Source: Nitrosarchaeum sp.
GTDB taxonomy: Archaea > Thermoproteota > Nitrososphaeria > Nitrososphaerales > Nitrosopumilaceae
Assembly (NCBI GenBank): GCA_023265135.1
Contig: JAHFUM010000001.1
Location: 219,632 to 251,631, forward strand
Reading direction: 5' to 3'
DNA: 32,000 nucleotides
Shown here: one piece after another, positions 10,729-25,923 of the stretch
Numbering within the stretch: position 1 is the first letter of the stretch
Layout of the letters: the number at the start of each line of letters is the position of its first letter
The notes under the pieces: generated by a model
What the model was told of the DNA's origin: nothing
Seen by the model: only the letters and a program-made list of their open reading frames with translations
Databases searched by the model: none
Program-made: the position numbers and the translations under genes

Positions 10729-10852
10729 ATCTTGAGTGGCTTTTTCAGATATTTAACTAGAATATTTTAGGCTGAAAAGAGAGTACAATGAATCAGAGTG
10801 ATAAATTTTATTTTTTATAATAAATTTTCATTTATTAAAATCCATCACATGT

Positions 10853-11014
10853 TTAGAAATTTCGTGAAAAATTATCTGATTTTATTTTTCCACATTTTAT
10901 ACATGAAATAGTTCCATTATGGGAATATTCATGAATGCATTCTTCAAATCCTAAGGACAAATCATTTTGGAATCTTTCTAAATGTTCATGAATTTCTCTT
11001 CCATTTTCTGACAT
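10853..11014 (-). CDS. possible small Cys/His-rich protein (53 aa), not in ORF track
   Basis: Hand translation: MSENGREIHEHLERFQNDLSLGFEECIHEYSHNGTISCIKCGKIKSDNFSRNF. ATG start. No family recognised. Confidence 0.25.
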   Translation of the reverse strand: MSENGREIHEHLERFQNDLSLGFEECIHEYSHNGTISCIKCGKIKSDNFSRNF

Positions 11015-11116
11015 GGTGAATTATGCTCAGATTTTATACAAAACATTAGTTTTACATCATTGCTAAAAAATTATCATCACAGCTAATTAGTTGTAATATA
11101 CAATTTTTTCAAACAC

Positions 11117-11410
11117 TTGATAATGTCACAAAAGAAACTTGCTACAGTTATTTTACCTGATTATGTTTATCATAAGATTAAATTTTTCCAAAAGGAATTA
11201 TCATATAAAGACAATAAAGAATGGAGTATATCAGATACAGTCAATTTATTGTTAAAGTTCTGTCTTTATGAAGAAAATGACTTGATTTATACTCAAGATT
11301 ATTCATTTTTTAAAGAATTCACATATGGAAAGGAATCATTTTTGCAAGATTTTACTTCAAATGTTTTGAGATCATGTATAGAATTTCAAACTATCAGATA
11401 TGATAAATAA
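11117..11410 (+). CDS. hypothetical protein, possible ribbon-helix-helix N-terminus
   Basis: 97-aa ORF; the likely ATG is at 11123. The N-terminus KKLATVILPDYVYHKIKFFQKEL has a strand-helix pattern. Confidence 0.45.
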   Translation: MIMSQKKLATVILPDYVYHKIKFFQKELSYKDNKEWSISDTVNLLLKFCLYEENDLIYTQDYSFFKEFTYGKESFLQDFTSNVLRSCIEFQTIRYDK

Positions 11411-11440
11411 TTATAATAATAACAATCAAGTGGGTTAGTT

Positions 11441-11698
11441 ATGCCACCTAGAAAAAAGATAGAAAAAGATCAAAAACTAAAAGGAGATCAAGCACGAATG
11501 GAATTTTTACAAAGAATAGTAGAAGATAAGCGAGCCGAAGTAGAAATCTATCGAGTACGTGTAGAACAATATTCAAAATGGCCTACAATCAAGGCACAGG
11601 CACAAAAGAATTTAGAAAATGCAGAAAAGGGACTAAAAAAAGCCAGCAGTGATCTCAAGATTCAACAAGAAAACATGGCCAGATTGGAAGAGAAGTAG
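11441..11698 (+). CDS. hypothetical coiled-coil protein
   Basis: 85 aa, highly charged, heptad-like sequence (RMEFLQRIVEDKRAEVEIYRVRVEQY...). Confidence 0.45.
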   Translation: MPPRKKIEKDQKLKGDQARMEFLQRIVEDKRAEVEIYRVRVEQYSKWPTIKAQAQKNLENAEKGLKKASSDLKIQQENMARLEEK

Positions 11699-11808
11699 AA
11701 ATTTTAACTTAATTTTTTATCTACTTAATACTTGTATGTGATTTTGTAAAATTAAGATTAATGTAAAAACAAATGAGTCATATTTATTTATAATGCAAAA
11801 AAAAAGAT

Positions 11809-12330
11809 TTATTCAAATGATTCAGTTCTATTTTTAAGTAATTCTCTTTCAGAGTTAAGTTTGGCGATATCATCCATAATTTTTTTAATTTGTTCATCAT
11901 CTGCAACAGATTTTTTTTCAACTCCTGAAGGTAATTCAATAAAATTACCAACCAACTCATTTTGTTTTCTAATTAGCTCTTCATTTTTTAAGTTTAGTTT
12001 TCCAGAAGCATTATAGGCTTTATTTATGTCATTGTTTTTAGAAGTCAGATCACCTACTTGCCCTGTCAAATGTTGAACAGGCTTTTGGCCAAAATAGAAA
12101 CCGATTATTGTTCCTAAAAAAGGTGCAAGCATGGCGATTAATTGATACGAAGAATCAAATTTATTCTTGTCATAAGTTTGCACAGATAGTACAATATACA
12201 CAAACACTGTAAATGATATAATGATAATCATCGCTATAATGAATTGAAAGAGCTCATCAACCTTAATGTTATATCTCAATTTTTTGTTTGACTTTTCCTC
12301 TTTATTTTTTAATGGTTCTTTATCTGTCAA
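11809..12330 (-). CDS. membrane protein with two TM helices and a C-terminal coiled coil
   Basis: 173 aa. TM segments FQFIIAMIIIISFTVFVYIVL and LIAMLAPFLGTIIGFYFG, followed by a charged helical tail. Confidence 0.55.
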   Translation of the reverse strand: MTDKEPLKNKEEKSNKKLRYNIKVDELFQFIIAMIIIISFTVFVYIVLSVQTYDKNKFDSSYQLIAMLAPFLGTIIGFYFGQKPVQHLTGQVGDLTSKNNDINKAYNASGKLNLKNEELIRKQNELVGNFIELPSGVEKKSVADDEQIKKIMDDIAKLNSERELLKNRTESFE

Positions 12331-12622
12331 CTAAATATAATGAATATGTGTTATTTATTAACAGATCGTTTTATAAATAGTACAAATGCAATTAGGATTC
12401 TAATTAATTGATTTTGCGTTATTTAATCCATACAACCTTAATAATAACATAATTTATTGTCCAAAAATTTTTCAAATAATTTGAGTAATCACATGTTGAG
12501 ACTCAGGTCAAAGATGATTAAATAGTAAATTATGCACTTCGTAAAAAAATGTTAGAATACAGTGAAATTATATTTAAATAATAAATGTTAGAAAAATTTT
12601 TTAATTTTAAAGACTCTGTTAA

Positions 12623-13435
12623 CTATAAACCCAATTCAGCGATTATATTAGTACGATTATTTGTAGTCAAGTAGTTTTTTAAATGAAGAATGATGTTTTG
12701 AATTCGAATTCCTTCATTATTTATGTAAACTGATTGCCCGCTTGCATTAGTTCCTACTGCCCCTTTGCCACGATGAATAGCGATCAAATTCCAAGAATCA
12801 TCAAATACAGGTGAACCTGAAGATGAGGTTTCGGTATCGGATGTGTAACGTATTACTTTTTCAAAGATATTCGTTATAATACTATCACGTAATGCAACTT
12901 TTTTTGGCACACCTAAAGGATGTTGTATAATATTGCATCGATCATTTAATGCGATGTTTGGTATTTTTAATTTAATAAATGCATGTTTATTCCCAGGATT
13001 TCCATTATTTGGAGCTAATCTTATAATTGTATAATCCAGAACATCATTTGTATAGAAAAAACGGGTTGCTAGATCAATGGATGCGTGAAATGTATCAACA
13101 GGTAATTGTGAGCCATGAATATCTAATTGATAATTAAATTGAAATTCGGCGGCTTCTGCATCTTGTATCGTAGGTAAAACATGATTATTTGTCATAAAAA
13201 GTGAGGGTGATACTAAGAATCCTGAAGCAAATTTACCGCTAGGATGTGTTATCACCTTACCTACAGCTTTCTGTATATTTGCACCTGTTTCTAAGAAATT
13301 AACATCTAATAAATCATTATTACCGATCATCGATTTTGATTCAACATGTGGATCATTCTCAGGTGTAGAGATTATTGAAGGAGATTCAAATTCGCTTGTT
13401 AGTTTAATGATAGGCTTTTCATTAATCACGATCAT
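12623..13435 (-). CDS. trypsin-like (clan PA, S1-type) serine peptidase, no signal peptide
   Basis: 270 aa. Triad contexts are GFLVSPSLFMTNNHV (His), VLDYTIIRL (Asp) and TETSSSGSPVF (Ser). The N-terminal NFLETGANIQKAVGKV motif is common in cytoplasmic trypsin-like effector domains. Confidence 0.75.
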   Translation of the reverse strand: MIVINEKPIIKLTSEFESPSIISTPENDPHVESKSMIGNNDLLDVNFLETGANIQKAVGKVITHPSGKFASGFLVSPSLFMTNNHVLPTIQDAEAAEFQFNYQLDIHGSQLPVDTFHASIDLATRFFYTNDVLDYTIIRLAPNNGNPGNKHAFIKLKIPNIALNDRCNIIQHPLGVPKKVALRDSIITNIFEKVIRYTSDTETSSSGSPVFDDSWNLIAIHRGKGAVGTNASGQSVYINNEGIRIQNIILHLKNYLTTNNRTNIIAELGL

Positions 13436-13702
13436 TAGCTGAGTTTATTCTATATAAGATTTATTGGAATAGGGTGAAATTATATTTTAATAAATTCACA
13501 GTAAAATAGTTTCATCACAATGTGGGGGAAAATTATGACGTTTTCATATTCTAATTTATGTTTGGATACCTATGTAATTTGTAATTCTAATTTTATTATG
13601 TAAACATATGTCATTTTCAGGTTCTTTTGTTACAATTAGTGAAATGTTTTATTTTAATACTCAAAAAAATGATAATACAGTGATTACTGAAATTAACAAA
13701 TA

Positions 13703-14029
13703 TTATTTACTTTGTATTCTCTTGATTTCATGTCCTTCTGAATCAAAAATATAAATATGATAATTTTTGATTTTCTCCCCATCATCGGCTTGTATTGATT
13801 TTGCCACTGATATCTGATATTCTATTTTTGGTTTTTCAGGTAATAAGTGAACTGGTTTAATGAATTTTTTTTCAGGTAAGTGAAATTTTCTGTTACAACT
13901 TGCAATCTTTGCCATTGTTTTCGGTTCCGTTAACTGGCTTTTTATTTCATTAGTTGTAAGAGTAACTTCACTGTCTTTATTTTTAGCTTGTATTTCTTTA
14001 AAAATTTTTTTTATAATTTCATCAGACAT
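13703..14029 (-). CDS. hypothetical protein (108 aa), starts 10 nt downstream of the C25-like peptidase gene
   Basis: ORF only, Lys-rich, no TM segment and no motif recognised. Confidence 0.5.
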   Translation of the reverse strand: MSDEIIKKIFKEIQAKNKDSEVTLTTNEIKSQLTEPKTMAKIASCNRKFHLPEKKFIKPVHLLPEKPKIEYQISVAKSIQADDGEKIKNYHIYIFDSEGHEIKRIQSK

Positions 14030-14039
14030 GAATATTCAC

Positions 14040-15149
14040 TTATAGAGTGGGATCTCCATATAAAACAAATTCTATTAATGTTTTTTCAGCATATTTATCA
14101 TTATTTTGCAAAGATTCTTGATAGTATTCGATTTTAGTCTCTATGAAGGCATCTCCACATTTCTTACCACAAGCTATTTTTCTTAAAAACTTATCAGCGA
14201 TCAAATCTGAATAATACAATATTGGTGATGTTCCATTATTTCCATATGCAGTTGCTGTGGAACCAATCACACACTTTGCGCCCATTTTTAGATACATTAA
14301 AGAAATTGCATTGTCAGGGTTTTTTTGGATAATGTATGCACCATAACATGCCTGCGAAATTACGATTGCATTTGGTACTTTAGTAGTATTAATAACATCA
14401 GTGCTTACAGCTGCGGATAAATTTCTTCCATCCGCACCATACCAAAATTTAGATGTTTGATTACCATGTAGATTAAAATAATGGTAAAGACAATCTTTAA
14501 TATTATTAGAAGATACTGTGGTGGATGGATTTATCAGTAAACTATGAGATTGACTAATATTTTCGTAGATTCGTTGTGATGGAAGTTGCCAAGATGATGC
14601 TACACAGCCCATTGATTTAACTTTGTGGTTGGTATGAGAACTATGTGCATTGATTGCTGTTTCTAGTTCACTAATTAAGAAGTTAGAATCATTAGATTTA
14701 CCATCAGGAATTCTACCAACAATCCACTCCGGAAGTAAAAAATCGTTGTCTGATGATGCATAAGGTGCATCAGAATAAACTAGATGATCAGAATTATCCA
14801 CATGTGATTGTTGAATTGTATGAAATGGAATTATTTGGTGTCCACCAACAATTAGCAAGTATTTCAGGTTAGTATTATTTTTATAAAATTGTTGTATTAA
14901 GTCAAGAATTGCATCAGAACTATCATTTTGTACTTTCGTCAAATTAATAGGATTAGTACTTTGAGGGTTATCCACAAAAACTAAACTTGTATTGATGCCT
15001 TCATTTTTTATTGTATCTCTCAGCTTTTCCAAGGAATTTTTTATTTTATTAAAATATGGATCAGAATATTTTTGTCTAAGATTTCCTTCATGTGAGATAA
15101 TCAATAACATAGAAATACAATTAAAATTGAAGTTTATTAATATTTTCAT
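14040..15149 (-). CDS. clan CD cysteine peptidase, gingipain (C25)-like, no signal peptide
   Basis: KYLLIVGGHQIIPF...YSDAPYASSDNDFLLPEWIVGRIP matches the C25 N-terminal pattern. His-Gly (YFNLHGN) and QAC (VISQACYG) form a dyad 40 residues apart. GAKCVIGSTATAYG follows. An alternative start is the ATG at 15110. Confidence 0.65.
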   Translation of the reverse strand: MKILINFNFNCISMLLIISHEGNLRQKYSDPYFNKIKNSLEKLRDTIKNEGINTSLVFVDNPQSTNPINLTKVQNDSSDAILDLIQQFYKNNTNLKYLLIVGGHQIIPFHTIQQSHVDNSDHLVYSDAPYASSDNDFLLPEWIVGRIPDGKSNDSNFLISELETAINAHSSHTNHKVKSMGCVASSWQLPSQRIYENISQSHSLLINPSTTVSSNNIKDCLYHYFNLHGNQTSKFWYGADGRNLSAAVSTDVINTTKVPNAIVISQACYGAYIIQKNPDNAISLMYLKMGAKCVIGSTATAYGNNGTSPILYYSDLIADKFLRKIACGKKCGDAFIETKIEYYQESLQNNDKYAEKTLIEFVLYGDPTL

Positions 15150-15214
15150 ATTATACTCACCTATAGATAGTTATGATTTAGAACTAAGGTTAAATCTGAA
15201 TAACCAAGGTAGTT

Positions 15215-15751
15215 TTAATGTCTAGGTACAGCTGATACGACTGGTTTGTAAATATCTGTTACTTCTTTAATGGTCTCTTGAACATTGTGTACGACTCCAG
15301 ACTTTTTGGAAGATACAAAAGTTACTGTTAATTCATTTATCAGATCTTTAATGGATGTAAACATTTCCTGAGTGGAAATAATTACATTGTGAATATCCTT
15401 ACCATTTACACCGTTTTCATCATTGCCAAATGAATCAATTTTTTTCTTGGCAGAGTCTATTAGAGATGTAGTTTTGTTGATTATACCTGTTTCCTTGAGC
15501 TCCTGTGTAATGTTTTGCATCTTTGTTGCCGTATCATTGATGTTTTCAGAAATTATACGGAAATTTTCAATGTTCTTTACCATTTCTGGCGTTTGGAGTC
15601 CTTGAATTATTTCATTAATCTTGGATACAGTCTCTTTAACATTGGTCAGTGATTCTAGAACTCCTGGTGTGCCAATCTGGCGCATTATTGCTGCTGCATC
15701 AAAAGCAGTTGCCCTGATTTCACTTAATTTGCTTGATTTTTTTTCTTCCAT
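15215..15751 (-). CDS. alpha-helical repeat protein, paralogue A
   Basis: 178 aa. Shares PEM-x3-I...ND...T-x-ELK-x-x-G-x-I motifs with 16093..16620. Confidence 0.6.
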   Translation of the reverse strand: MEEKKSSKLSEIRATAFDAAAIMRQIGTPGVLESLTNVKETVSKINEIIQGLQTPEMVKNIENFRIISENINDTATKMQNITQELKETGIINKTTSLIDSAKKKIDSFGNDENGVNGKDIHNVIISTQEMFTSIKDLINELTVTFVSSKKSGVVHNVQETIKEVTDIYKPVVSAVPRH

Positions 15752-15781
15752 AGTGTTTCAACTTTTCAAATTCAACGATAT

Positions 15782-16096
15782 CTATGCTATTGTATCTGGA
15801 ACGTCTTCCATATAATGAACCTTGTCTGTCAGACGCATTTGTATTACAAATATCAAGCCGCCAATTACAAACATCGAGTTTAGCACGGCAAAGCCAATGT
15901 TGTTTGTAAGAAAGTCATTTACAGCAAGTAAGAGATTAAGTCCTGTTAAGCAAACAGAAATGATAGGAAAATACTTGCCTGTTTTAATTATGACATCAAG
16001 CAAGTGGACAAACAAACTGATCTTTGCAGAATCAGAAATTGGGGTTACAAAATGTACCAATTTCTGTCCTGATTTTGTATTCACTATATGTTTCAT
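15782..16096 (-). CDS. small membrane protein (2-3 TM)
   Basis: 104 aa. Its start codon overlaps the upstream stop (ATGA at 16093-16096). Hydrophobic segments FPIISVCLTGLNLLLAV and AVLNSMFVIGGLIFVI. Confidence 0.55.
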   Translation of the reverse strand: MKHIVNTKSGQKLVHFVTPISDSAKISLFVHLLDVIIKTGKYFPIISVCLTGLNLLLAVNDFLTNNIGFAVLNSMFVIGGLIFVIQMRLTDKVHYMEDVPDTIA

Positions 16097-16620
16097 CGGA
16101 CACCAACTTTGGTTTTTAGATCTTTTACGACCATGCCAGTCACATGATTTGTCTCCTTTTTGACAAGGTCTACTCCTTTGTGTATTGCCTTTGTTGTGTG
16201 TGGAGATACTCTCCCAGCGTCAGTTGCAATATCTTTTACAGTTGATGCAGATTCTTCTGCAATTTTCAAGGTGTTCTCTATAGCACCTGCAGTGTCAACT
16301 ATTGCACCTTTTCTTTTCAGCTCTTTTGTTGTTTCGTTAATATCGTTTACAGTATCACGAACAGCAAACGAAGCTTCACGTATTGCATCAGCCATTTCTG
16401 GTATGGCACCACTTTCGCGAAGAGTTTTCATTGTTTCTCTCATCTTAAATGAATACTCTCTGATGTTCTTTGAGACATTTTGGATGGCTTCCACAGTCTC
16501 GGTTGCAGTCCATTTGTGGACCAGATCCCCTTGCGAAGATCCATTTTGATGATTATTGTAGTCTTTCATGCTGTAATGGCACATGATTTTACTAATAACG
16601 CTCGCTAACAATTTATTCAT
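16093..16620 (-). CDS. alpha-helical repeat protein, paralogue B
   Basis: The ORF track starts at TTG 16641; the first ATG is at 16620 (MNKLL...). Internal repeats: ESGAIPEMADAIRE / RKGAIVDTAGAIEN. Paralogous to 15215..15751. Confidence 0.6.
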   Translation of the reverse strand: MNKLLASVISKIMCHYSMKDYNNHQNGSSQGDLVHKWTATETVEAIQNVSKNIREYSFKMRETMKTLRESGAIPEMADAIREASFAVRDTVNDINETTKELKRKGAIVDTAGAIENTLKIAEESASTVKDIATDAGRVSPHTTKAIHKGVDLVKKETNHVTGMVVKDLKTKVGVR

Positions 16621-16804
16621 ATCATTGATCCATTTATCCAAGGCAGAAATATGGTAAATAGATAGATTCCTCTACTTAATCGGGCAATGTTTTGGGCGTA
16701 ATTATGCGTGAAATTAAATTTCAAGTTCCCAATATAGTTTAAAAAATCACTTTTTATAAGAAATTTTATTAGCTACAATGACATATAATATTCAGAGAAA
16801 CTAA

Positions 16805-17065
16805 ATGACTGAAAATTATGTACGTGTAGGTGGAAGAGGAACATCTAGTAGAATTGCTAAAAAAGAAGATCAGAATTGGACTGGTTCAGCATTTAAAAAT
16901 CTGCAAGAGAAACGAAAAGAAGAATCAAAAAACAGTTACATTTCTGTAGGAAGAGGTACTAGTAAAATCAAGTTTGGAGATATCAATACAGGTTCTCAAC
17001 GACCAACAGGGAAAGGAATGTGGGTAAGTACTGGTCGAGGAACTGGTAAGCGTTTGATAAAATGA
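16805..17065 (+). CDS. small basic protein with three GRGT repeats
   Basis: 86 aa. The three repeats are YVRVGGRGTSSRI, YISVGRGTSKIKF and WVSTGRGTGKRLI. Confidence 0.5.
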   Translation: MTENYVRVGGRGTSSRIAKKEDQNWTGSAFKNLQEKRKEESKNSYISVGRGTSKIKFGDINTGSQRPTGKGMWVSTGRGTGKRLIK

Positions 17066-17166
17066 AATGCTTTCATGATACATAAAACTTGATCAAGATT
17101 TGTTTATTATACTATTTAATTAAAAATAAAATTATATTTTAAGTAAAATAGAAAAAATTTAGAAGT

Positions 17167-17514
17167 TTATTTAAAAGAACGAACTTTGCGAATTACTTTG
17201 TTGTGATCAAATGCAGCTGTAGTAGTAACATACAAGATATGATTCTTACCAGCAGGCATTACTATTCTCTTAACTGTATCATACTCAGCTACAACATATT
17301 TGCATGATCCAAGTGTTCGAAGTAGTTTTTTTCTTTGTTTCCAATCATGAGCAGCAGCTTTTAGTGATGCCAAGCTTTGATTTTTGGACACAAGAATTTT
17401 TACTTTCTTTGAACGTGCAGAGAAAATCAATTTTCCTTGAAGGTCACAAACACTAACTACTCTTACAGAAGGACTTAACTTCAAAAGTTTTTCTGCGGCA
17501 GATTGTATTTCCAT
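17167..17514 (-). CDS. hypothetical protein, possibly Roadblock/LC7-like
   Basis: 115 aa. Pattern LLKLSPSVRVVSVCDLQGKLIF...ILYVTT loosely resembles the Roadblock/LC7 fold. Weak, by eye only. Confidence 0.4.
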   Translation of the reverse strand: MEIQSAAEKLLKLSPSVRVVSVCDLQGKLIFSARSKKVKILVSKNQSLASLKAAAHDWKQRKKLLRTLGSCKYVVAEYDTVKRIVMPAGKNHILYVTTTAAFDHNKVIRKVRSFK

Positions 17515-17568
17515 GTTATTGGTTTGTGTTATAGTTGATAAAATTTTCTATTTCATTTACTAAAATAA

Positions 17569-17647
17569 ACTAACTGATAGTAAGAGAACGGCAGGGCTTG
17601 AACTAACAGATAGTATGGGCCCACAGGTTCTCTCACTATCAGTTAGT
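17569..17647. repeat. imperfect inverted repeat (21-nt arms, 1 mismatch, 37-nt spacer) enclosing the distal att copy
   Basis: Left arm 17569-17589 is actaactgatagtaagagaac. Right arm 17627-17647 is gttctctcactatcagttagt. Confidence 0.8.
17590..17627. repeat. att direct repeat, distal copy (displaced 3' end of tRNA-Val plus trailer)
   Basis: ggcagggCttgaactaacagatagtatgggcccacagg matches 24727-24764 at 37 of 38 positions. Confidence 0.9.
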
Positions 17648-17769
17648 AAGAGCCCAAGAAATTTTGTGAATAAAAGTTGACATAAAATGCAGAAAGCTTA
17701 TCGGAGTAGCTACAAACTCCTTTCCTATTTTTTATTTTTCGATAAAACTGTAATTTATGAAAATTAAAC

Positions 17770-18885
17770 ATGAACAATTATAGAAAAACAAATTTATCGA
17801 CAACCAGTAAAAATGGTATCCCCCGTTTTGTTCGGGAAGACATACTATGTTGGCGTAAAGCTTTTTGTCAAGTAAACGAATATTTTATTGTGAGATTATT
17901 CATATTTCCAATAATTGGGATTTTGTTAGTTTCAGTTGGAGGGTATATTACAATTCCAGTTAGTGCAGAAGAAAATCCATGTAGAGATAGTGAATCAGTC
18001 GAGCTAAACTACAAAATCGATAAAGGTATGGTAAAATCAATCTGTCGTGATAGGGAGACAGAGAGTTTAATTGTTTCAATCAATGCTACTGGTAACGGTA
18101 CAATATTTTTGGACATTCCAAGAAAAATTATGAATCAAATAAATTCAAATTGTGAAGATGTTCCATTTTTTGTACTTGTTAATGATGAAGAAATATTTCA
18201 AGATAGAAAAAACAATTTTGGAATAGATCCTTATGTAGAAACAAAGTCTATCTATTCTCGTACATTGCAAATTCCATTTAAAACAGAATCTTATAAAATC
18301 GAGATTATGAATTATTCATTCATTCCTGAATATTTGCAAGACGTAAAAACATGTCAAGAGAAAATAAATTCACTTCCACCCAAACAACAAATAATGAAAG
18401 GAGTATTGCCTGAAGAGATAGTTTGTAAAGAAGGATTACAATTAATCTTCAATTCAAAGAATAACTCTCCTGCATGTGTAAAACCACAATCAGCTAAACA
18501 ACTTGTTGAGCGCGGATGGGGAATAATTGTAACACAAATACCAGACAAAGATAGTCCATCAAAATCAATGAAATTATCTAACTCTGATTTTATGATATAC
18601 TATGACATAACAGGAGGCAATATTCTTGAAGTTAAAGAGGACAAACAAGAAAGAACAATAACAATATCATTAGACACCACAAGTCAAGGGATGCTAACAA
18701 TAACTCTGCAAAAAGCCTTGATAGACTCAACTTTTGGGAACAAGTTTGAGCCTACCTTATTTGTCTTAGTAGATAAAAATGAAGTTAACTTTGAGGAAAC
18801 AGCTACATCTGCAGATAGAACACTAACAATACAATTCCCAGCAGGAGCTGAGACTATTCGAATCATTGGACCTATTTATCCATAA
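17770..18885 (+). CDS. secreted/anchored modular protein (two beta-rich modules plus a Cys-bracketed RGW module)
   Basis: 371-aa ORF. An in-frame GTG at 17890 would give a clean signal peptide, MRLFIFPIIGILLVSVGGYITIPVSAEE. Modules are shared with 19506..22109. Confidence 0.65.
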   Translation: MNNYRKTNLSTTSKNGIPRFVREDILCWRKAFCQVNEYFIVRLFIFPIIGILLVSVGGYITIPVSAEENPCRDSESVELNYKIDKGMVKSICRDRETESLIVSINATGNGTIFLDIPRKIMNQINSNCEDVPFFVLVNDEEIFQDRKNNFGIDPYVETKSIYSRTLQIPFKTESYKIEIMNYSFIPEYLQDVKTCQEKINSLPPKQQIMKGVLPEEIVCKEGLQLIFNSKNNSPACVKPQSAKQLVERGWGIIVTQIPDKDSPSKSMKLSNSDFMIYYDITGGNILEVKEDKQERTITISLDTTSQGMLTITLQKALIDSTFGNKFEPTLFVLVDKNEVNFEETATSADRTLTIQFPAGAETIRIIGPIYP

Positions 18886-19066
18886 TTATTTCAGGACTTG
18901 TCGCTTATTTGGATAATTACATTGAGGACCTTAACACGAGGATGGTCAAGTGATTGAATATTTTGATTTTAACACTTTTTTTCTGAGGTCACAATAAGAT
19001 TACATGCTGTGTTGTCGTAAAGGTTATGGTTAAGTAAGAAGATTATTTTTCACTCTGCAGATAAAA

Positions 19067-19315
19067 ATGAAAACCAGATTATTAATAATTATTGGAATCT
19101 TAATCATAGTTAGCATACTCTTTTTCTGTTTTAGTATTTTTGAATATACAAAACAACATCAAGTATTTGTAGATTATTTTACAAAACCTATCCATAAAGC
19201 AGGTTCCAGTATGCCATTGCCTGATACGAACACTTTCGTTCCTTATCTAATAATTGGAATCATAACGAGTGCTTGTGGAATTTTTACAATAATTCAAAGT
19301 AGAAAATCAAAATGA
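19067..19315 (+). CDS. small membrane protein (2 TM)
   Basis: 82 aa. TM segments LLIIIGILIIVSILFFCFSIF and YLIIGIITSACGIFTII. Confidence 0.5.
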   Translation: MKTRLLIIIGILIIVSILFFCFSIFEYTKQHQVFVDYFTKPIHKAGSSMPLPDTNTFVPYLIIGIITSACGIFTIIQSRKSK

Positions 19316-19505
19316 CTCTCAAAGGACAAAGAAACCACTACAACGTAAAATTTCTCAAAGGATATGGTCACTCCATTTCAGTGAAAGATTCAAAAATTAT
19401 TCTCAGACTGCCCGCCTTGTGAGTAAAAACGTGCGTCTGACTAAAGTAATGACGTAAGTTGATTTGTTGGAAAATCATTATAACAAAAGATGCAATCATA
19501 ATTAT

Positions 19506-22109
19506 ATGCAGAAATTTTTTGCTTTGGTGATACTTTCCATTTTAATTTCATCAACATTTCTGTTGTCTAGTGTATATGGACAAACTGTTCAACCAAATTC
19601 AAATACTGTCATAAAAGATGGGTTAAAACTTACAGTATACACTGACAAAAAATTCTATACCAAGGAAGATGCTATTAATATAAAATGGACTGCTCAAAAC
19701 ATTGGGTCAGAAAATATTACTTATGACAATTTCATAGTAAAAATAATTGGAAATGCTACTGAATATGACTCTTCTAGATTAAAACCATCTGAGATACTGC
19801 TTATATCACCAGATGATACTCGTGTAAAGAAATTTGACAGCGATGTATTTTATGGAAAAATATTATCTTTGATAAAACTTGGGGAAACTAGATCTTATGG
19901 TATCATTATGATTGTCTCTGATCAAAATAAAATTACTGTTGAAGACATTTTGAAAACCAAACACCATGCCACAAATGTATTTGCGGGGGAGAGACTTTCA
20001 TTTGTAACTGCGCAAGTACCTCTTCAAGAAATTCCAAAACTTGCAGATTATGACGTTATTAGTCTAATCGGAGACGGTGAACAAAAGATTATTTTTGACT
20101 ATGTAACAATAAACACTTTACAGGTAGGTCAAACTCTGAATGGAGGCTTGTCATTGAGTCAGCATCTTTATCCCAGATATTACGATAAACAACAGGTAAT
20201 CCCATCTGGGCAATATACAGTACAACTATCATTTGCAGGGAATCAATCTTCAGTACCTATATCCATAGATGAATCACCATCACCAAAAATACAACCATCT
20301 ATAGTGAATCAATCTTCAGTACCTATATCCATAGATGAATCACCATCACCAAAAATACAACCATCTATAGTGAATCAATCTTCAGTACCTAACTCTCTTA
20401 CAATAGATCCAGACATCATATTTCCAGAGATGCAAAGAAATGAGGCACATGAATTACATGGACAAGTTTTTTTTGCAGGTAATTTGGCAAAGGATGTCTT
20501 TGTAACTATGTCGATAGAAAATCCTGATGGTTCATTTTTAAATAAACACTCAGAGACACAAACCGACAAGGACGGCAATTATAATTTTTCAATTTTTATT
20601 CCTCAGGACAGTGCTTTAGGAACTTATACAGTATCTCTTAATGCTACGATATCAGGGTATGCATCAACTAGCATGCAATACTATTTTTGGATCACCAATT
20701 CGCCAACCCTTGATGACTATGCTTGGAAAATCACGAAAGTATTTCGTGACAAGAATGAATTTCAGGTTCCATATAGAATTACCAGTGGAAATGTACATGA
20801 CATGGAATCAAAAAACGGCTCATTTTTTTTATATTTGGATAGTTATTCAGAAGGACTTCTTGAAATTGCAATCCCAAGAAATCTGATAGAACCTGATCTA
20901 AAGTCAATCTATGATGAATTTACACCTTTAGTTGATGGATATTACCAACATTCCAAAGAAACAGATTCTGAATGTTTTCGAACATTTACTATTCAACTAT
21001 TTCAAAACGCTAAAACTGTAGAAATAATTACAGCTCCTGATGCATTAGGTCCTAAATACCAAACAAACATTCCTGAGAAATGTAATAATTCAGCAACATA
21101 CGCTAAGTTTTCAGAAAAAAAACCATCTATAAATAAAATCTCTAATGGAGTCAGTCCCAATATTTCAGAAATTAGCAAACTTCCTTTGAAGTTTTATGTG
21201 TTACACGAAAATTTGTTTTATGAAAATAATGATTATGCTGAACAAACTTTTAGAATTCCATACAAACTTTATAATGCAAATTTAGAATTTATCGGATATA
21301 ATTCTGGTACAATCACAATAGGTATAGACAATAAAGATACTGGCACAATGCAAATTGCGATCCCTAACAATATCCTTGAATCAGAAAAACCTGAACAGCT
21401 AAATGATTTTTCCCTTTCCATCGATGGACACACTTCAGATTTTCATAGTTTAAAAACGCCCTGTTATCGAGAATTTACTTTTGAACTTCCTAAGAATTCA
21501 AATGAGATTTTACTCACACATAACATTCAATCAGGAAGTAGATTGCCATACGTTAACCCTTTGAATTTTCCAGCTAACTGTATAACGGGTGATACCACCC
21601 CAAGTAGTCAAATTTTATCAGGAAAATTGCCTAGTGAAATAGGATGTTATGACAAAGAAATGATACCGTTTAAGAGATTATCTGAGGACGAAATTGTTTG
21701 TGTAACACAAAAAACTGCTGAAGTACTTGTGAAAAGAAATTGGGGAAATTATCCAATTGATCTAAAAAACGGTCAAACATGGGTTGAACTATACCCTGTA
21801 CTCTGTCATAAAGATTTATGTGCAATTAGATCAATTTGGGAAGAATCATATCTTTCAGGTGAATTACAACCAACATTATTTGAAGGAACATCGGGTTATG
21901 ATATTGAAACTACATCCAAATTGATAATTGAAAGTTATAAAAAACAGGGAATTAAAATCTACGATGTAAAATTTGAACAAAACAATCCTGTCAATTGTGA
22001 TACAAAAGGCTGTTTAGATCCATATACTCTCAAACTTTTGATTAATGACAGTGATCTAAACAAAATGAACGGATATAGTTTTGAAATTTTTGAAAAATAT
22101 AGGCCGTAG
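19506..22109 (+). CDS. large secreted modular protein with an internal perfect tandem repeat
   Basis: The ORF track starts at TTG 19464. The ATG at 19506 gives signal peptide MQKFFALVILSILISSTFLLSSVYGQ. Two modules are homologous to those in 17770..18885, plus a CysRGW-type module (CYDKEMIPFKRLSEDEIVCVTQKTAEVLVKRNWG). Confidence 0.7.
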   Translation: MQKFFALVILSILISSTFLLSSVYGQTVQPNSNTVIKDGLKLTVYTDKKFYTKEDAINIKWTAQNIGSENITYDNFIVKIIGNATEYDSSRLKPSEILLISPDDTRVKKFDSDVFYGKILSLIKLGETRSYGIIMIVSDQNKITVEDILKTKHHATNVFAGERLSFVTAQVPLQEIPKLADYDVISLIGDGEQKIIFDYVTINTLQVGQTLNGGLSLSQHLYPRYYDKQQVIPSGQYTVQLSFAGNQSSVPISIDESPSPKIQPSIVNQSSVPISIDESPSPKIQPSIVNQSSVPNSLTIDPDIIFPEMQRNEAHELHGQVFFAGNLAKDVFVTMSIENPDGSFLNKHSETQTDKDGNYNFSIFIPQDSALGTYTVSLNATISGYASTSMQYYFWITNSPTLDDYAWKITKVFRDKNEFQVPYRITSGNVHDMESKNGSFFLYLDSYSEGLLEIAIPRNLIEPDLKSIYDEFTPLVDGYYQHSKETDSECFRTFTIQLFQNAKTVEIITAPDALGPKYQTNIPEKCNNSATYAKFSEKKPSINKISNGVSPNISEISKLPLKFYVLHENLFYENNDYAEQTFRIPYKLYNANLEFIGYNSGTITIGIDNKDTGTMQIAIPNNILESEKPEQLNDFSLSIDGHTSDFHSLKTPCYREFTFELPKNSNEILLTHNIQSGSRLPYVNPLNFPANCITGDTTPSSQILSGKLPSEIGCYDKEMIPFKRLSEDEIVCVTQKTAEVLVKRNWGNYPIDLKNGQTWVELYPVLCHKDLCAIRSIWEESYLSGELQPTLFEGTSGYDIETTSKLIIESYKKQGIKIYDVKFEQNNPVNCDTKGCLDPYTLKLLINDSDLNKMNGYSFEIFEKYRP
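20241..20391 (+). repeat. 66-bp perfect tandem repeat, 2.3 copies, in frame
   Basis: Unit aatcaatcttcagtacctatatccatagatgaatcaccatcaccaaaaatacaaccatctatagtg at 20241-20306 and 20307-20372, plus 19 nt of a third copy. It encodes NQSSVPISIDESPSPKIQPSIV. Confidence 0.95.
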
Positions 22110-22334
22110 TGCAATAAATGATTTGAGAAACACAAGTATTTGCTTGAGTGTAGCTATGTATGTTTTTGATAATAATTCTTGCTTTTATTGTAGCGTATAA
22201 GGGAACTAGTTATACAAAAAGAAAATCTAAACTTTATTCCTAAATCCTTAAGTTTTATACATCAGGCTTGAGAATGAAAATAAAAAAAATCTAATTTTAT
22301 TACATTCTAAGACAAAGCACTTCACCATTTGAAA

Positions 22335-22637
22335 TCATAACAATGTCTCACAATTAGGACAAGCAGTAGTATCTGTATCTTTTTTTACAAGACCTGCAAA
22401 TTTACAGCCACATTCAAGGCAGACAAATCCCCTTCTCTTCCAAAGTCTAGCGTGATAATACGGAATCATCAGCCAAGATATTTTTCTGAATCGCAGTTTC
22501 ATATCCTCATTAAGATAATAGATTCCAAGTACACGTTTTGCGCCTTTTATCCCTCGATTTCGAGGATCTTTATAGTGAGTTCTTGCATGATTGTATCTTT
22601 TTGCTATTGAAATTACGTACTCCATTTGAGCTATCAC
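22335..22637 (-). CDS. hypothetical basic protein with a C-terminal zinc ribbon
   Basis: 100 aa. C-terminus is CLECGCKFAGLVKKDTDTTACPNC (CxxC-x17-CxxC). Confidence 0.5.
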   Translation of the reverse strand: MIAQMEYVISIAKRYNHARTHYKDPRNRGIKGAKRVLGIYYLNEDMKLRFRKISWLMIPYYHARLWKRRGFVCLECGCKFAGLVKKDTDTTACPNCETLL

Positions 22638-22769
22638 TGAGCTATCGGATTTTATAGATAATAAAGGCAGATTATGACGTTTTTCATAATTTCCTTTTTC
22701 TATTGAAATAATTTGCTTTTGTTAGTATGCATTTAGTAGTTATATTTTTTAAAATAAAATGTAAAACAA

Positions 22770-23177
22770 TTATGCTTTTCCAGTATCTTTTGGTCTTCCG
22801 CGTTTTCTTTTCAGTGGTTTTCGTCCACGTTTTCTGTTTTTATCAAAGATATTGTCAGCCTGAGAGAATACTTTGGCAATTCCAGCAGATAGTTTCTCAA
22901 GTTGCTCTTCTTGATCTTTTACAGGTATTGTCTTCAAAACCTCATTAATTTCAGCCTCCAGATTTTTAGTGTATTTGTTACCGATCTTTCTTATTCTTTT
23001 GATGATTTTATTATCAGTTGTAGCATACAACTCTGACATTGCAATTAATCTAGCGAGTATTTCTATTCCGTTTTTCAAAGATTGATTATAATTCAAGTCA
23101 TACTTATCACGCAATTTATCAAGAATTCGTTTTTCATCTTCTGTGAATCTGCCTGTAATAGTATGCCATTCTGTCAT
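22770..23177 (-). CDS. putative ribbon-helix-helix DNA-binding protein with a C-terminal AT-hook tail
   Basis: 135 aa. N-terminus HTITGRFTEDEKRILDKLRDKYDLNYNQSLKNGIEILARL has a strand-helix-helix pattern. C-terminus is NRKRGRKPLKRKRGRPKDTGKA. Confidence 0.55.
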   Translation of the reverse strand: MTEWHTITGRFTEDEKRILDKLRDKYDLNYNQSLKNGIEILARLIAMSELYATTDNKIIKRIRKIGNKYTKNLEAEINEVLKTIPVKDQEEQLEKLSAGIAKVFSQADNIFDKNRKRGRKPLKRKRGRPKDTGKA

Positions 23178-23226
23178 TTAATGTGTAGACAAATTTCGAT
23201 ATTAATTTCTGTTATTATTGTATTAT

Positions 23227-23451
23227 ATGAAAGATGAACTGAAAGATTCAGAATTTGTGCAAAAAGAGATTGATTTTGGTGAGAGAAAAATCTCAAAGAT
23301 GAATTTCAGTCATATTGTAACTATTCCAAAAAAATTCATTCAGAGTACAAGATATGAGAAAATCACAACAGTGCGAATGATCATGACAGATGGTTATCTA
23401 AAACTTGTACCTGTACGCGCAAAGAACGGAGATGAGGAAGTAGATCTGTAA
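23227..23451 (+). CDS. AbrB/SpoVT-like small DNA-binding protein
   Basis: The ORF track starts at TTG 23218; the ATG is at 23227. FSHIVTIPKKFIQS...GYLKLVPV resembles a swapped-hairpin barrel. Its stop lies 3 nt before the integrase ATG. Confidence 0.5.
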   Translation: MKDELKDSEFVQKEIDFGERKISKMNFSHIVTIPKKFIQSTRYEKITTVRMIMTDGYLKLVPVRAKNGDEEVDL

Positions 23452-23454
23452 GTC

Positions 23455-24738
23455 ATGAAAAGAGTAAATACGGTAAACCCTCTTGAAATTACTGATGAGG
23501 TCCGCACAGATGTGCGGTCTGATGTGGGAAAAATGACGCAAGAACAAAGCCAAATAACAACTGCAAAACAAAAAAGAATCACAAAAAAAGACAGCCTTCT
23601 TTCAAACCAAGACATACAACGCTGGTACGACAACCTAGCAAGAAGTAGCGTTGTAACAGCAGAAGTGAGACTGCGAAAGCTGGGCAAATTCTGTGAGAAC
23701 AACAACATGACTCCAAGAGAGTTAATCGAGTTGGGACTCAAAGATCCAAGGGCAGTAGCAGATCTTCTAGAAGACAACATTACAACACTTGAAAGAAAAA
23801 GATACGCACCTCAGTACATAAAGACAGTAATCACAGCAGTCAAGTCATGGTTACACCACTTTGACATCGAAGTAAAGCGAAGAATAAAGATTGCAAATGT
23901 GGATGCAACACCAACACTTGCAGATGAGCGAGTTCCAGAGACATCAGAACTAACAGAATTGTTCAACCGAGCAGATCTAAGGGCTGGTGCAGTTATATCA
24001 CTGATGGGAAAAGCTGGACTGCGACCACAAGTGTTAGGAAATCATAACGCAACAGACGGGCTGATGATACAAGATCTGCCAGAACTTGAAGTGATAAACG
24101 GGATTGCAAGGTTTACAAAAATACCTGCAAGAGTGATTGTCAGAAGTACACTCTCAAAGGCAGGGCACAAATATTTCAGTTTCATTACAGAGACTGGAGC
24201 AGAAAAAATAATTGCATATCTCAATCAGCGAATGATTGACGGTGAGATTCTAGGTCCTGAAAGTCCTGTGATAGTGCCTTTTTCAAAGTACAAAAGATTC
24301 CGTGGAAAAAATGAGGGAAGAAAGTTTCTTTGTACTGCAATAATTGAAAGAGACGTACGAGATACCATGAGACCGCGCTTCAAGTGGAGACCGTATGTGC
24401 TAAGAGCGTTCTTTGATACGCAATTATTAATTGCAGAGTCTAGAGGCAAAATAGCTCATGACTTTCGTGTTTTCTTTATGGGACACACTGGTTCCATGGA
24501 GGCAAAATACACAACAAACAAGAGCATACTACCAAAAGCACTGACAGATGAGATGTACGAGTCTTTTAAAAAATGTCAGGAATTTTTGGACTATGAAAAC
24601 AACAAGAAACAGGACGAAGAAATCACAAAACAGCGAGTGGTAAGTCTAGAAGAATTTGAAGAAATGGTAATAGAAGGTTGGCAGTTTCTTGGAACATTGC
24701 CAAATGGCAAAATTGTCATCAAAAATGGCAGGGTTTGA
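23455..24738 (+). CDS. int: tyrosine recombinase / integrase (archaeal MGE type)
   Basis: 427 aa. Catalytic contexts are KAGLRPQVLG (Arg I), YVLRAFFDT (Arg II) and FFMGHTGSMEAKYT (His and the Tyr nucleophile). The stop codon lies inside the att repeat. Confidence 0.85.
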   Translation: MKRVNTVNPLEITDEVRTDVRSDVGKMTQEQSQITTAKQKRITKKDSLLSNQDIQRWYDNLARSSVVTAEVRLRKLGKFCENNNMTPRELIELGLKDPRAVADLLEDNITTLERKRYAPQYIKTVITAVKSWLHHFDIEVKRRIKIANVDATPTLADERVPETSELTELFNRADLRAGAVISLMGKAGLRPQVLGNHNATDGLMIQDLPELEVINGIARFTKIPARVIVRSTLSKAGHKYFSFITETGAEKIIAYLNQRMIDGEILGPESPVIVPFSKYKRFRGKNEGRKFLCTAIIERDVRDTMRPRFKWRPYVLRAFFDTQLLIAESRGKIAHDFRVFFMGHTGSMEAKYTTNKSILPKALTDEMYESFKKCQEFLDYENNKKQDEEITKQRVVSLEEFEEMVIEGWQFLGTLPNGKIVIKNGRV

Positions 24739-24764
24739 ACTAACAGATAGTATGGGCCCACAGG
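24727..24764. repeat. att direct repeat, tRNA-proximal copy
   Basis: ggcagggTttgaactaacagatagtatgggcccacagg. Positions 24753-24764 are the 3' end of tRNA-Val. Confidence 0.9.
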
Positions 24765-24827
24765 GATTTGAACCCTGGATTTTCGCCGTGTAAGGGCGAC
24801 GTCATAACCGATCTGGACCATGAGCCC
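24753..24827 (-). tRNA. tRNA-Val (anticodon UAC), 75 nt, no encoded CCA
   Basis: Folded by hand. Acceptor stem GGGCTCA/TGGGCCC, anticodon stem TCGCC/GGCGA with loop CTTACAC, T arm CAGGG-TTCAAAT-CCCTG, discriminator A. Confidence 0.9.
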
Positions 24828-24849
24828 AGAGACAGTCCTTGATGAAAAC

Positions 24850-24859
24850 CATTTAAACT
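24850..24859 (-). promoter_or_regulatory. archaeal TATA box for tRNA-Val
   Basis: The minus strand reads GTTTAAATGG, with TTTAAA 25-30 nt upstream of tRNA position 1. Confidence 0.5.
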
Positions 24860-24906
24860 TTGAGACAAGTAATAATCTAGAAATTTGATCAGAATTTTGT
24901 ACAAGT

Positions 24907-25923
24907 ATGGTAGATTTAGATTTTTTTTCTAGTCCGATAGGATTAGGTCATGCAACAAGAGACATAGCTATTGCGAATAATTTTGAAAACATATCAACAA
25001 AATTTGTAACAGGAAATGGAGCTGCAGAAATTTTAAAAAATTCAGATTTTAATGTAGAGGACAGATATATTCCACCACAGTTTATTGTGGAAAACGGAAT
25101 ACTAAAGAAATCTACAAAATGGCTTTGGAATTATTATCGATATTATAAACAGTGTAAAAAAATTGCTAATAAAATTATTGAGTTAGATAATCCAAGATTA
25201 GTTGTCAGTGATGAAGATTTTGCGTCACTTACTGTTGCTCAAAATAAAAAAATACCTACAGTTTTGATTACAGATATTTTACAAACTAATTTTATAAATG
25301 GAATAACATCATTTATTGAAAAAAAGATGAATAAATCGATGCAAGAGATTATTAAAAAATGCGACGTTGTGATTATTCCAGAAAATGGTCAAGATGAAGG
25401 AAATATTAGAAGAGTTGGATCAATTGTAAGACAAACAAATTTTTCAAGAGAAGAACTACGAAAAAAATTCTCTTTTGATAAAAAAACTATAGTTGTATCA
25501 ATAGGAGGGACTGATGCAGGACTTTTTCTAATTGAAAAAACACTAGAATCCATACAGAAAATAAATCAGGACGTAAATTTAGTAGTTGTTTCAGGTCCAT
25601 CTTTGAGCAAAAAATTTGGAGATTCTATAAGAAATTTAGGATTTGTCAATAATCTCCATGAAATAATTTTTGCATCTGACGTAATAGTATCTCTTGCAGG
25701 TAAATCGACTATTGATGAGGCAAAAATATACGGAACACCAGGAATTTTTATTCCAATTAAAGGGCATTTTGAGCAGGAAGATAACGCCAAAGAGGAAGGA
25801 TTTGTTTTTGAGGATATTAACAAATTAGACAAGTTAATCATAGAAAAACTGGAGCAAAAACGAAATCCTTTGGAAAACAAAGGGGCAGTCAATGCATACA
25901 ATATAATCAAAAAGTTAATTTGA
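24907..25923 (+). CDS. GT-B fold glycosyltransferase (MurG/UDP-glycosyltransferase-like)
   Basis: 338 aa. N-terminal FSSPIGLGHATRDIAIA motif. C-terminal half VVSIGGTDAG...ASDVIVSLAGKSTIDEA is typical of GT28/GT1-like enzymes. Confidence 0.65.
   Translation: MVDLDFFSSPIGLGHATRDIAIANNFENISTKFVTGNGAAEILKNSDFNVEDRYIPPQFIVENGILKKSTKWLWNYYRYYKQCKKIANKIIELDNPRLVVSDEDFASLTVAQNKKIPTVLITDILQTNFINGITSFIEKKMNKSMQEIIKKCDVVIIPENGQDEGNIRRVGSIVRQTNFSREELRKKFSFDKKTIVVSIGGTDAGLFLIEKTLESIQKINQDVNLVVVSGPSLSKKFGDSIRNLGFVNNLHEIIFASDVIVSLAGKSTIDEAKIYGTPGIFIPIKGHFEQEDNAKEEGFVFEDINKLDKLIIEKLEQKRNPLENKGAVNAYNIIKKLI

Follow-up and report, generated by a model that had tools for sequence, protein, structure and literature searches.

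The locus described here raises the question whether a 7.1-kb stretch of DNA next to a tRNA-Val gene is a mobile element, and which of its parts would make it mobile. It lies in a 32,000-nt region of a Nitrosarchaeum sp. genome (GenBank assembly GCA_023265135.1, contig JAHFUM010000001.1, positions 219,632 to 251,631), and this whole stretch of DNA is called the window below. A preliminary description of the window had proposed a small integrated element with an integrase gene beside tRNA-Val(UAC) and with no recognisable replication or virion genes. The flanking genes and the integrase have their best matches in Nitrosarchaeum and Nitrosopumilaceae genomes, which suggests a Nitrosarchaeum-like ammonia oxidiser as host. 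As judged from the comparison with orthologous sites in related genomes, the 7.1-kb stretch at tRNA-Val is a real insertion. It is probably a small integrative mobile element, i.e., a thaumarchaeal cryptic integrated element (CIE), in a Nitrosarchaeum-like genome. Its current activity is unproven, as no circular form was found.

The ends of the inserted DNA are marked by a direct repeat of 41 nt, which was detected in a repeat search of the window at positions 17587-17627 and 24724-24764. The two copies are identical at 39 of the 41 positions. The 38-nt repeat reported before is part of it (17590-17627 and 24727-24764), and both its identity of 37/38 and the 7,099 bp between the copies were reproduced. 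A 25-mer derived from the repeat has exactly two copies in the window and none in 100 shuffles. The window contains a sole tRNA gene, tRNA-Val(UAC), which is encoded on the minus strand at 24752-24828 according to ARAGORN and at 24753-24827 according to Rfam (RF00005, 60.6 bits). The right copy of the repeat indeed covers the 3' end of this gene, i.e., the last 12-13 nt.

The case for an insertion is carried by unoccupied sites. The orthologous locus, which comprises tRNA-Val and a GT28 glycosyltransferase gene, was taken from 80 species-representative genomes, and the loci were labelled with L-numbers. Occupancy was counted for the 49 assessable species loci, each of which had 1.5 kb or more of sequence upstream of the tRNA. 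Neither an integrase nor an integrase tail was present at 46 of the 49 loci, a tail alone was present at two, and a C-terminal integrase fragment at one. The empty site that had been proposed as a check was found in two forms. In L011, L009 and L038 the genes of the window's own left flank (window 16683-17546, 86% identical) lie about 100 nt from an unoccupied tRNA-Val. In Nitrosarchaeum sp. BD3 (L021) the site is precisely empty, i.e., the DsbD flank is directly joined to the tRNA and there is no insertion. At exactly this junction a 4.4-kb element is present in the sister lineage L003, L004, L005 and L016. In a neighbour-joining tree of the tRNA and GT28 flank the occupied loci are scattered among the empty ones.

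Sibling elements in L001, L003 and L086 were used to define the mobile unit. In L001 and L003 the 13-bp sequence ATGGGCCCACAGG is the sole stretch that is common to attL and attR, i.e., the attachment sites on the left and on the right, and attL has no copy of the integrase tail. In the window this 13-bp core has exactly two copies, and both are perfect. As judged from these alignments, the functional attachment (att) core is 13 bp and not 38-41 bp long. The repeat of the preliminary description is thus real and correctly placed, but its core comprises only 13 bp, and the other 28 nt are a copy of the integrase tail. Measured from core to core the mobile unit is 7,137 bp long (17615-24751). 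The contigs L014, L015, L019 and L036, which stem from metagenome-assembled genomes, start at the 13-bp core or at most 2 nt from it; assemblies seem to break at the att site, which fits population heterogeneity there.

The 28 nt at 17587-17614 are in register with 24724-24751, with 2 mismatches. Integrase tails were found at further loci: 40-50 nt lie beside the tRNA in L013 and L018, which have no integrase, integrase residues 378-426 remain in L025, and attL of L086 has a tail of 17 nt. The 28 nt are absent from the empty sites with the window's flank (L011, L009 and L038) and from the empty site of BD3, and, thus, they are not a conserved chromosomal feature. In site-specific recombination the attB sequence ends up on the outer side of attL. 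The site would thus have carried an integrase tail already before the present element arrived. Most likely, the 41-nt repeat is composed of the 13-bp core and a 28-nt remnant of an earlier, degraded occupant. Alternatively, the full 41 bp could be a genuine identity segment, i.e., the 28 nt would belong to the native chromosomal attB, and the element would have become adapted to it in evolution. In archaea, att sites with lengths of 40-60 bp are known to reach beyond the tRNA (PMC8371274), and L086 is a second genome with tail sequence at attL. However, the four empty sites lack the 28 nt, L001 and L003 are integrated with the 13-bp identity alone, and the 28 nt represent the coding end of the integrase and occur beside the tRNA only where the element is or was present. 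An att site of 41 bp was therefore regarded as very unlikely.

The comparison of the window with L001, L003 and L086 revealed a common backbone, which consists of a non-coding left end and the genes for a zinc-ribbon (Zn-ribbon) protein, a 135-aa protein, an AbrB-like protein and the integrase. The left end is 90-93% identical to those of L001, L003 and L086, while the DNA beyond it, the cargo, is unrelated. The central slot, with the left end on one side and the right-hand module on the other, thus holds unrelated cargo in each lineage, and the backbone is constant. In the window the cargo consists of two secreted modular proteins with WING-49 domains and a small membrane protein. L001 carries a Nuc_deoxyrib_tr-like protein and several unannotated proteins, L003 a single secreted repeat protein of 625 aa, and L086 tetratricopeptide repeat (TPR) and membrane proteins. 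All of these are ordinary cellular-type proteins. The conserved backbone comprises about 740 codons in total, 427 of which belong to the integrase.

The left end contains the 12-mer CTAACTGATAGT (minus strand, 17635-17646) and a hairpin that is followed by a T-run. Its reading as a small RNA was rejected, because no Rfam family matched at threshold. In the reconstructed attP the core lies between an inverted pair of 12-mers that are 20 bp apart, i.e., CTAACAGATAGT, which is part of the integrase tail, and its complement, which lies in the left end. The 12-mer has 4 matches in the window versus 0.26 expected, and they occur only at att-associated positions. In the siblings it is found again where it was predicted, and a near-copy is present in the tail of the 81%-identical integrase of an element at tRNA-Arg. 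The two 12-mer sites (CTAACWGATAGT) are likely to be integrase-binding sites, a putative role suggested by their position and recurrence.

The integrase gene ends with a stop codon at 24736-24738, i.e., inside the right repeat and 13 nt before the core and the end of the tRNA. The protein has no match at E <= 0.1-1 in Pfam, PHROGs and NCBIfam, and neither the Phage_integrase model of Pfam nor the integrase models of NCBIfam are matched. PDB sequences were not matched either, neither with phmmer nor with a profile of 35 sequences. An AlphaFold (AF2) model of the integrase had a predicted local distance difference test (pLDDT) score of 65 and was poor at residues 307-390. The 38 best matches of this model in a Foldseek search against the PDB were all tyrosine recombinases, among them XerA (5hxy, E 3.7e-7), Cre, IntI (2a3v) and Tn1549 Int, with TM-scores of only 0.27-0.42. 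In an alignment of 35 sequences GLRP (R190), SK (K235), Y314-x-x-R317, G-H344 and Y352 are invariant, and the spacing of box I and box II is canonical. Modelled fold and motifs place the integrase in the tyrosine recombinases, and it would be expected to be catalytic. The earlier designation as a tyrosine integrase is thus backed by the Foldseek fold and the motifs, but no sequence library shows it. A split integrase of the SSV type was rejected, because the open reading frame (ORF) is intact in the integrated state and the core (24752-24764) lies beyond the stop codon. The core is found 13 nt past the stop, the gene is not split by integration, and, thus, the element is not of the SSV type.

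More than 1,200 homologues of the integrase were found at E <= 0.001, in Nitrososphaerota. One of them, P0103 (CUR51021.1), is the integrase of the element NitDev-E1 and shares 63% identity with that of the window over 92% of the length. CUR51021.1 has been catalogued as a XerC/XerD-family integrase (arCOG01245, cluster cog.006082) of NitDev-E1, together with the NitUzo-E1 integrase in the same cluster (PMC6563490), and, thus, the integrase family has already been recognised in the literature. Integrases that are 72-81% identical to that of the window adjoin tRNA-Arg(GCG) (L088 10001-11372 and L087 820-2259). P0022 of L088 is 81% identical, and, like P0058 of L087, it abuts tRNA-Arg(GCG) and not tRNA-Val, which indicates target switching at high protein identity. 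In L088 the tail motif GGACTAACAGATA is kept beside the end of tRNA-Arg, and the neighbours of the integrase are type I restriction-modification and GmrSD genes, as cargo. On the L087 contig OLD-like/AAA_15 and SLFN_AlbA_2 genes, which are of defence type as well, are located near the integrase, and the borders of the element are unmapped there. The G+C content is 0.37-0.42 in the integrase region (window 23001-25000) versus about 0.30-0.34 in the rest of the element and the flanks.

All ORFs of the element were compared with Pfam, PHROGs and NCBIfam, and, in agreement with the preliminary description, genes for Rep, a primase, MCM, a polymerase or a capsid protein were detected neither in it nor in its siblings L001, L003 and L086. 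Signature genes for a major capsid protein, a packaging ATPase, Cas1 or VirB4/VirD4 were not detected in the ORFs of these four elements either, and the PHROGs and Pfam scans revealed no terminase, packaging or interference genes. One explanation would be an autonomous plasmid or virus episome with functions that are not recognised, for example with the Zn-ribbon or the 135-aa protein as an initiator that acts on the 120-bp left end. It is in accord with this that the Zn-ribbon protein is a strongly conserved hallmark without fold relatives, and that the non-coding left end is more conserved than a simple core site needs. In addition, initiators of the winged helix-turn-helix type in small elements were left possible by a survey (PMC6563490). 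However, an episome would have to be run with the about 740 codons of the backbone, most of which are taken by the integrase, and its cargo consists of ordinary cellular-type proteins. Furthermore, IMG/VR and INPHARED contain no relatives of the integrase, IMG/VR contains no junction, and no free circular contig was found in metagenomes. An episome is thus quite improbable.

Another explanation would be a helper-dependent hitchhiker, which excises itself and is carried in thaumarchaeal virus particles, in vesicles or by a larger conjugative element, as has been proposed for tycheposons and PICI-like satellites. Genes for transfer or replication are not encoded by the element itself, piggy-backing of thaumarchaeal elements has been discussed (PMC6563490), and similarly laid-out tycheposons have been found in vesicles and capsids (bioRxiv 10.1101/2020.12.28.424599). 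However, genes related to packaging, interference or capsids are lacking in all four siblings, searches of viral contig collections (IMG/VR and INPHARED) did not reveal the element, and no candidate helper was identified. We give this explanation as little chance as the episome.

Several observations weigh against an integrative mobile element as proposed here. The lack of a replication gene could be a failed detection, as the Zn-ribbon protein and the 135-aa protein have no assignable function. The check for a circular junction, which had been recommended earlier, was negative: the exact attP-junction pattern had no match in IMG/VR, and the one match in the JGI metagenomes belongs to a further integrated copy, whose attL carries a tail remnant. 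Viral collections contain no relatives of the integrase (IMG/VR and INPHARED). In the integrase model the pLDDT falls below 50 in the catalytic C-terminal part, so that the catalytic residues rest on motif spacing and not on structure. The remnant model leaves a 20-bp inverted repeat at attL unaccounted for. Its arms (17568-17587 and 17627-17646) are predicted to form a DNA hairpin of -21.4 kcal/mol (z = -6.5), and it was seen only in the window genome and is absent at attL of L001, L003 and L086. Lastly, backbone and host flanks have diverged to a similar degree, so that there is no sign of a very recent transfer.

The last point, together with the undetected circular form in IMG/VR and the JGI metagenomes, would also be expected for a fixed island, i.e., an immobile region that is inherited vertically, whose integrase is kept for another role or has not yet decayed and whose cargo differences are insertions and deletions. 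Decay is indeed common at this site, as tails, fragments and integrase-less partial tRNA copies exemplify, and a 1-nt deletion alters the last residues of the window integrase compared with L001 and L003. However, the ending NGR[AV]-stop occurs also in other full-length members of the family, e.g., P0015. Both 13-bp cores are perfect and the left end is conserved at 90-93%. The four backbone genes are all intact, and purifying selection acts on them, with ratios of nonsynonymous to synonymous divergence (dN/dS) of 0.10-0.16 for the integrase, 0.08-0.22 for the Zn-ribbon protein, 0.16-0.32 for the AbrB-like protein and 0.29-0.40 for the 135-aa protein, i.e., 0.08-0.40 overall. The dS of the integrase (0.27-0.46) is consistently lower than that of the adjacent chromosomal genes (0.38-0.88), about 0.6 times, which gives mild support for exchange after host divergence. 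In addition, close relatives differ in occupancy, with occupied sites alternating with precisely empty ones. A fixed island is therefore unlikely, and an integrative mobile element is preferred.

For such an element the following mechanism is proposed. The integrase would recombine the 13-bp core, as carried by the element, with the same sequence at the end of tRNA-Val(UAC), where it comprises the last 12 nt (+1); the anatomy of the sites is observed, and the catalysis is presumed from it. Integration would regenerate the tRNA and duplicate the core. Upon excision the junction of the circle is expected to read ...ATCAAAAATGGCAGGGTTTGAACTAACAGATAGT|ATGGGCCCACAGG|TTCTCTCACTATCAGTTAGTAAGAGCCC, and the healed chromosomal site ...CTAACTGATAGTAAGAGAACGGCAGGGCTTGAACTAACAGATAGT|ATGGGCCCACAGG|GATTTGAACCCTGG. 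The AbrB-like, AT-hook and Zn-ribbon proteins probably control expression and directionality. As a replication module is absent, the element would be copied passively with the chromosome and would be excised occasionally, with a circle that is only transient. A helper virus, vesicles or a larger element are candidate routes of transfer. The positions of all features are listed in Table 1.

Table 1. Features of the element at tRNA-Val and its surroundings (positions in the window).
Feature	Position	Strand	Remarks
Flexible-island DNA, 6.8 kb	10778-17586		between conserved DsbD flank and attL; outside the mobile unit
Left arm of 20-bp inverted repeat flanking attL	17568-17587	+	19/20 identical to the element's first 20 nt, inverted
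28-nt copy of integrase 3' tail	17587-17614	+	reads NGRA-stop; outside the element, beside the core
attL core ATGGGCCCACAGG	17615-17627	+	copy of the last 12 nt of tRNA-Val + 1 nt
Conserved non-coding left end, ~120 bp	17628-17739	+	forms one arm of the reconstructed attP
Cargo, 371-aa protein	17770-18885	+	N-terminal membrane anchor or signal, WING-49 domain
Cargo, 82-aa protein	19067-19315	+	two hydrophobic segments; weak DUF matches only (Pfam)
Cargo, 881-aa secreted modular protein	19464-22109	+	signal-like N-terminus, MG2/prealbumin-like, repeats, WING-49
Zn-ribbon protein, 94-100 aa	22335-22637	-	backbone gene, family hallmark
135-aa protein	22770-23177	-	backbone gene; AT-hook-like C-terminal tail KRGRKP..KRGRPK
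AbrB/MazE-like protein, 77 aa	23218-23451	+	backbone gene; ends 4 nt before integrase start
Integrase, divergent tyrosine recombinase (fold and motifs), 427 aa	23455-24738	+	backbone gene; reads towards the tRNA
attR	24724-24764	+	integrase tail 24724-24751 (with CTAACAGATAGT at 24740-24751) + 13-bp core 24752-24764
tRNA-Val(UAC)	24753-24827	-	intact target gene; ARAGORN, Rfam RF00005

The ORFs of 77, 135 and 100 aa as well as the large ORFs at 17770-18885 and 19464-22109 were all found as described before. The functions that had been suggested for the three small proteins were verified in part. A match of the Zn-ribbon protein is present in Pfam/NCBIfam, but it is weak. The protein is 82-94% identical in L001, L003 and L086, and 33-36% identical in the distant elements L087 and L089, and its relatives form at least 90 protein clusters. 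Its AF2 model has a pLDDT of 78, and the fold had no match in the PDB (best E 1.1) or the BFVD (best E 0.15). For the 135-aa protein the AT-hook (RGRKP / RGRPK) is visible, but the ribbon-helix-helix (RHH) domain has no Pfam support. The RHH assignment was rejected, because Pfam was negative even for the N-terminal 61 aa alone, and the full protein matches no family in Pfam or NCBIfam. It is fast-evolving, with homologues in L001, L003 and L086 that are 50-65% identical, and it is a candidate DNA-binding regulator or architectural factor. The AbrB-like call has weak support via a homologue in L088 (51% identical), which matches PF04014 with an E value of 9e-4. The protein is a candidate regulator or directionality factor. 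A second Cys-rich family (159-197 aa; CPxCH...YWLTYTH...KKCRIRQY.NTPDP) is encoded beside integrase and Zn-ribbon genes in L087 (2303-2896) and L089 (9423-9902), and it is absent from the element of the window.

The two large cargo proteins of the window are related to each other in their modules. The 371-aa protein has a hydrophobic N-terminal stretch and matches the 49-aa WING-49 family of NCBIfam (NF058652, E 5e-22), and it has no Pfam match. The 881-aa protein matches MG2 of Pfam (E 6e-6) and WING-49 of NCBIfam (E 1e-5). A further repeated module is common to both proteins, with an identity of 30-37%. A literature search for the WING-49 domain revealed no paper. The gene of the 881-aa protein contains a near-perfect tandem repeat of 66 nt in about three copies (20225-20422), which encodes three 22-aa units (..QPSIVNQSSVPISIDESPSPKI..). 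This repeat could allow a surface protein to vary in length.

Relative to the empty site of BD3 (L021) the inserted DNA starts not at attL, but already at 10778. The element thus sits at that end of a 14-kb flexible island which is next to the tRNA. The DNA from 10778 to 17586 is a mosaic: 10778-11373 adjoins tRNA-Val in L018 and L006, and 16683-17546 does so in L011, L009 and L038. The segment 11374-16682 is unique to the window and encodes a membrane protein, a trypsin-like S1 peptidase, a C25 peptidase and an apolipophorin-like protein. No copy of the core was found at or near 10778, even when two mismatches were allowed. A simple model of two elements in tandem was rejected, because the edge has no core and the pieces adjoin unoccupied tRNAs in other genomes, and, thus, 10778-17586 is flexible-island DNA and not a clean tandem element.

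Second copies of the core, 1-9 kb upstream of tRNA-Val, were observed in L023, L028, L030, L053, L057, L065, L073 and L077. They are partial tRNA-Val 3' ends around integrase-less segments in Nitrosopumilus and Nitrosarchaeum genomes. In most cases another conserved end, GACTCACCCAC...GGGGATGAAAATG, follows. The integrase-less segments of L028 and L077 encode subtilase, EEP nuclease, CBS, Usp and MBL proteins, and L057 has two such segments in tandem. These core-bracketed segments suggest older integrations, possibly of a second element family.

To our knowledge, few routes of gene exchange are known for ammonia-oxidising archaea. In the element family analyzed here it can be followed to the single base how unrelated cargo is brought into one tRNA site by a minimal integrase module. 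Across the window and its relatives the cargo includes surface proteins and TPR proteins as well as restriction-modification and further defence genes. A flexible island is built up as elements integrate and decay repeatedly, with tails and partial tRNAs left behind. In addition, two annotation gaps became apparent, i.e., an abundant integrase family that is missed by the Pfam and NCBIfam models, and a co-conserved Zn-ribbon protein without a known fold.

Thaumarchaeal CIEs were catalogued by Krupovic et al. in 2019, two of them at tRNA-Val(TAC), and many of them have no replication genes (PMC6563490). The comparison with published elements, which had been recommended, revealed all features that define a CIE: an integrase, att repeats in the 3' part of a tRNA, empty orthologous sites, and no virus, casposon or conjugation genes. 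The class of the element is thus already published, and the finding extends the 2019 catalogue and overturns nothing. What is added is a base-precise anatomy, i.e., the 13-bp core, the left end, the four-gene backbone with its cargo slot, and the tail remnants. A search for later papers (after 2019) that deal with tRNA-linked islands or integrases in ammonia-oxidising archaea yielded nothing specific.

Among the catalogued elements, NitUzo-E1 of Ca. Nitrosotenuis uzonensis N4 (CBTY010000006: 64627-73529) is integrated in tRNA-Val(TAC), is 8.9 kb long and has the att sequence CCTGTGGGCCCATT (PMC6563490 Table S2). This att is the reverse complement of the 13-bp core of the window plus 1 nt, and the target tRNA is the same. 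The size is similar, the integrase is in cluster cog.006082, and no replication or virion genes are listed. NitUzo-E1 differs in genus and in cargo, which includes an ArsR regulator, and the strand of its integrase relative to att looks different, as far as can be seen in the published table. NitDev-E1 of Nitrosotalea devanaterra and NitNCS1-E1 of Nitrosotalea okcheonensis (3.7-5.5 kb) also consist of an integrase and hypothetical proteins, the 3' end of the integrase abuts the tRNA-side att, and NitNCS1-E1 has CopG/RHH and AbrB regulators as well. In contrast to the window, they use tRNA-Arg (TCT or GCG) as target and carry other cargo.

The SSV-type ("suicidal") integrases share with that of the window that they are archaeal tyrosine recombinases with a tRNA target and an attP at the integrase gene. 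However, their att lies inside the ORF and the gene is split, whereas the gene in the window stays intact, which is a pNOB8-like topology. The tycheposons of Prochlorococcus (Hackl et al., bioRxiv 10.1101/2020.12.28.424599) resemble the family in several respects: a tyrosine recombinase uses the 3' end of tRNA genes that are associated with islands, swappable cargo is combined with a mobility module that stays constant, and serial integration and decay lead to partial tRNAs, integrase fragments and islands. One could go further and regard the four genes and the 120-bp left end as a complete, self-sufficient "cargo shuttle" family of ammonia-oxidising archaea, which would build the tRNA-linked islands of Nitrosopumilaceae as a counterpart of tycheposons and would use the Zn-ribbon protein as a new initiator or directionality factor, but this view is speculative and was judged to be rather unlikely. 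Tycheposons are bacterial, have a lineage-specific integrase and usually contain a primase/helicase replication module. In contrast, no replication module was recognisable in the four elements scanned here, and the hallmarks of the family are the Zn-ribbon, AbrB-like and AT-hook proteins, so that a likeness to tycheposons, and not a membership, is proposed.

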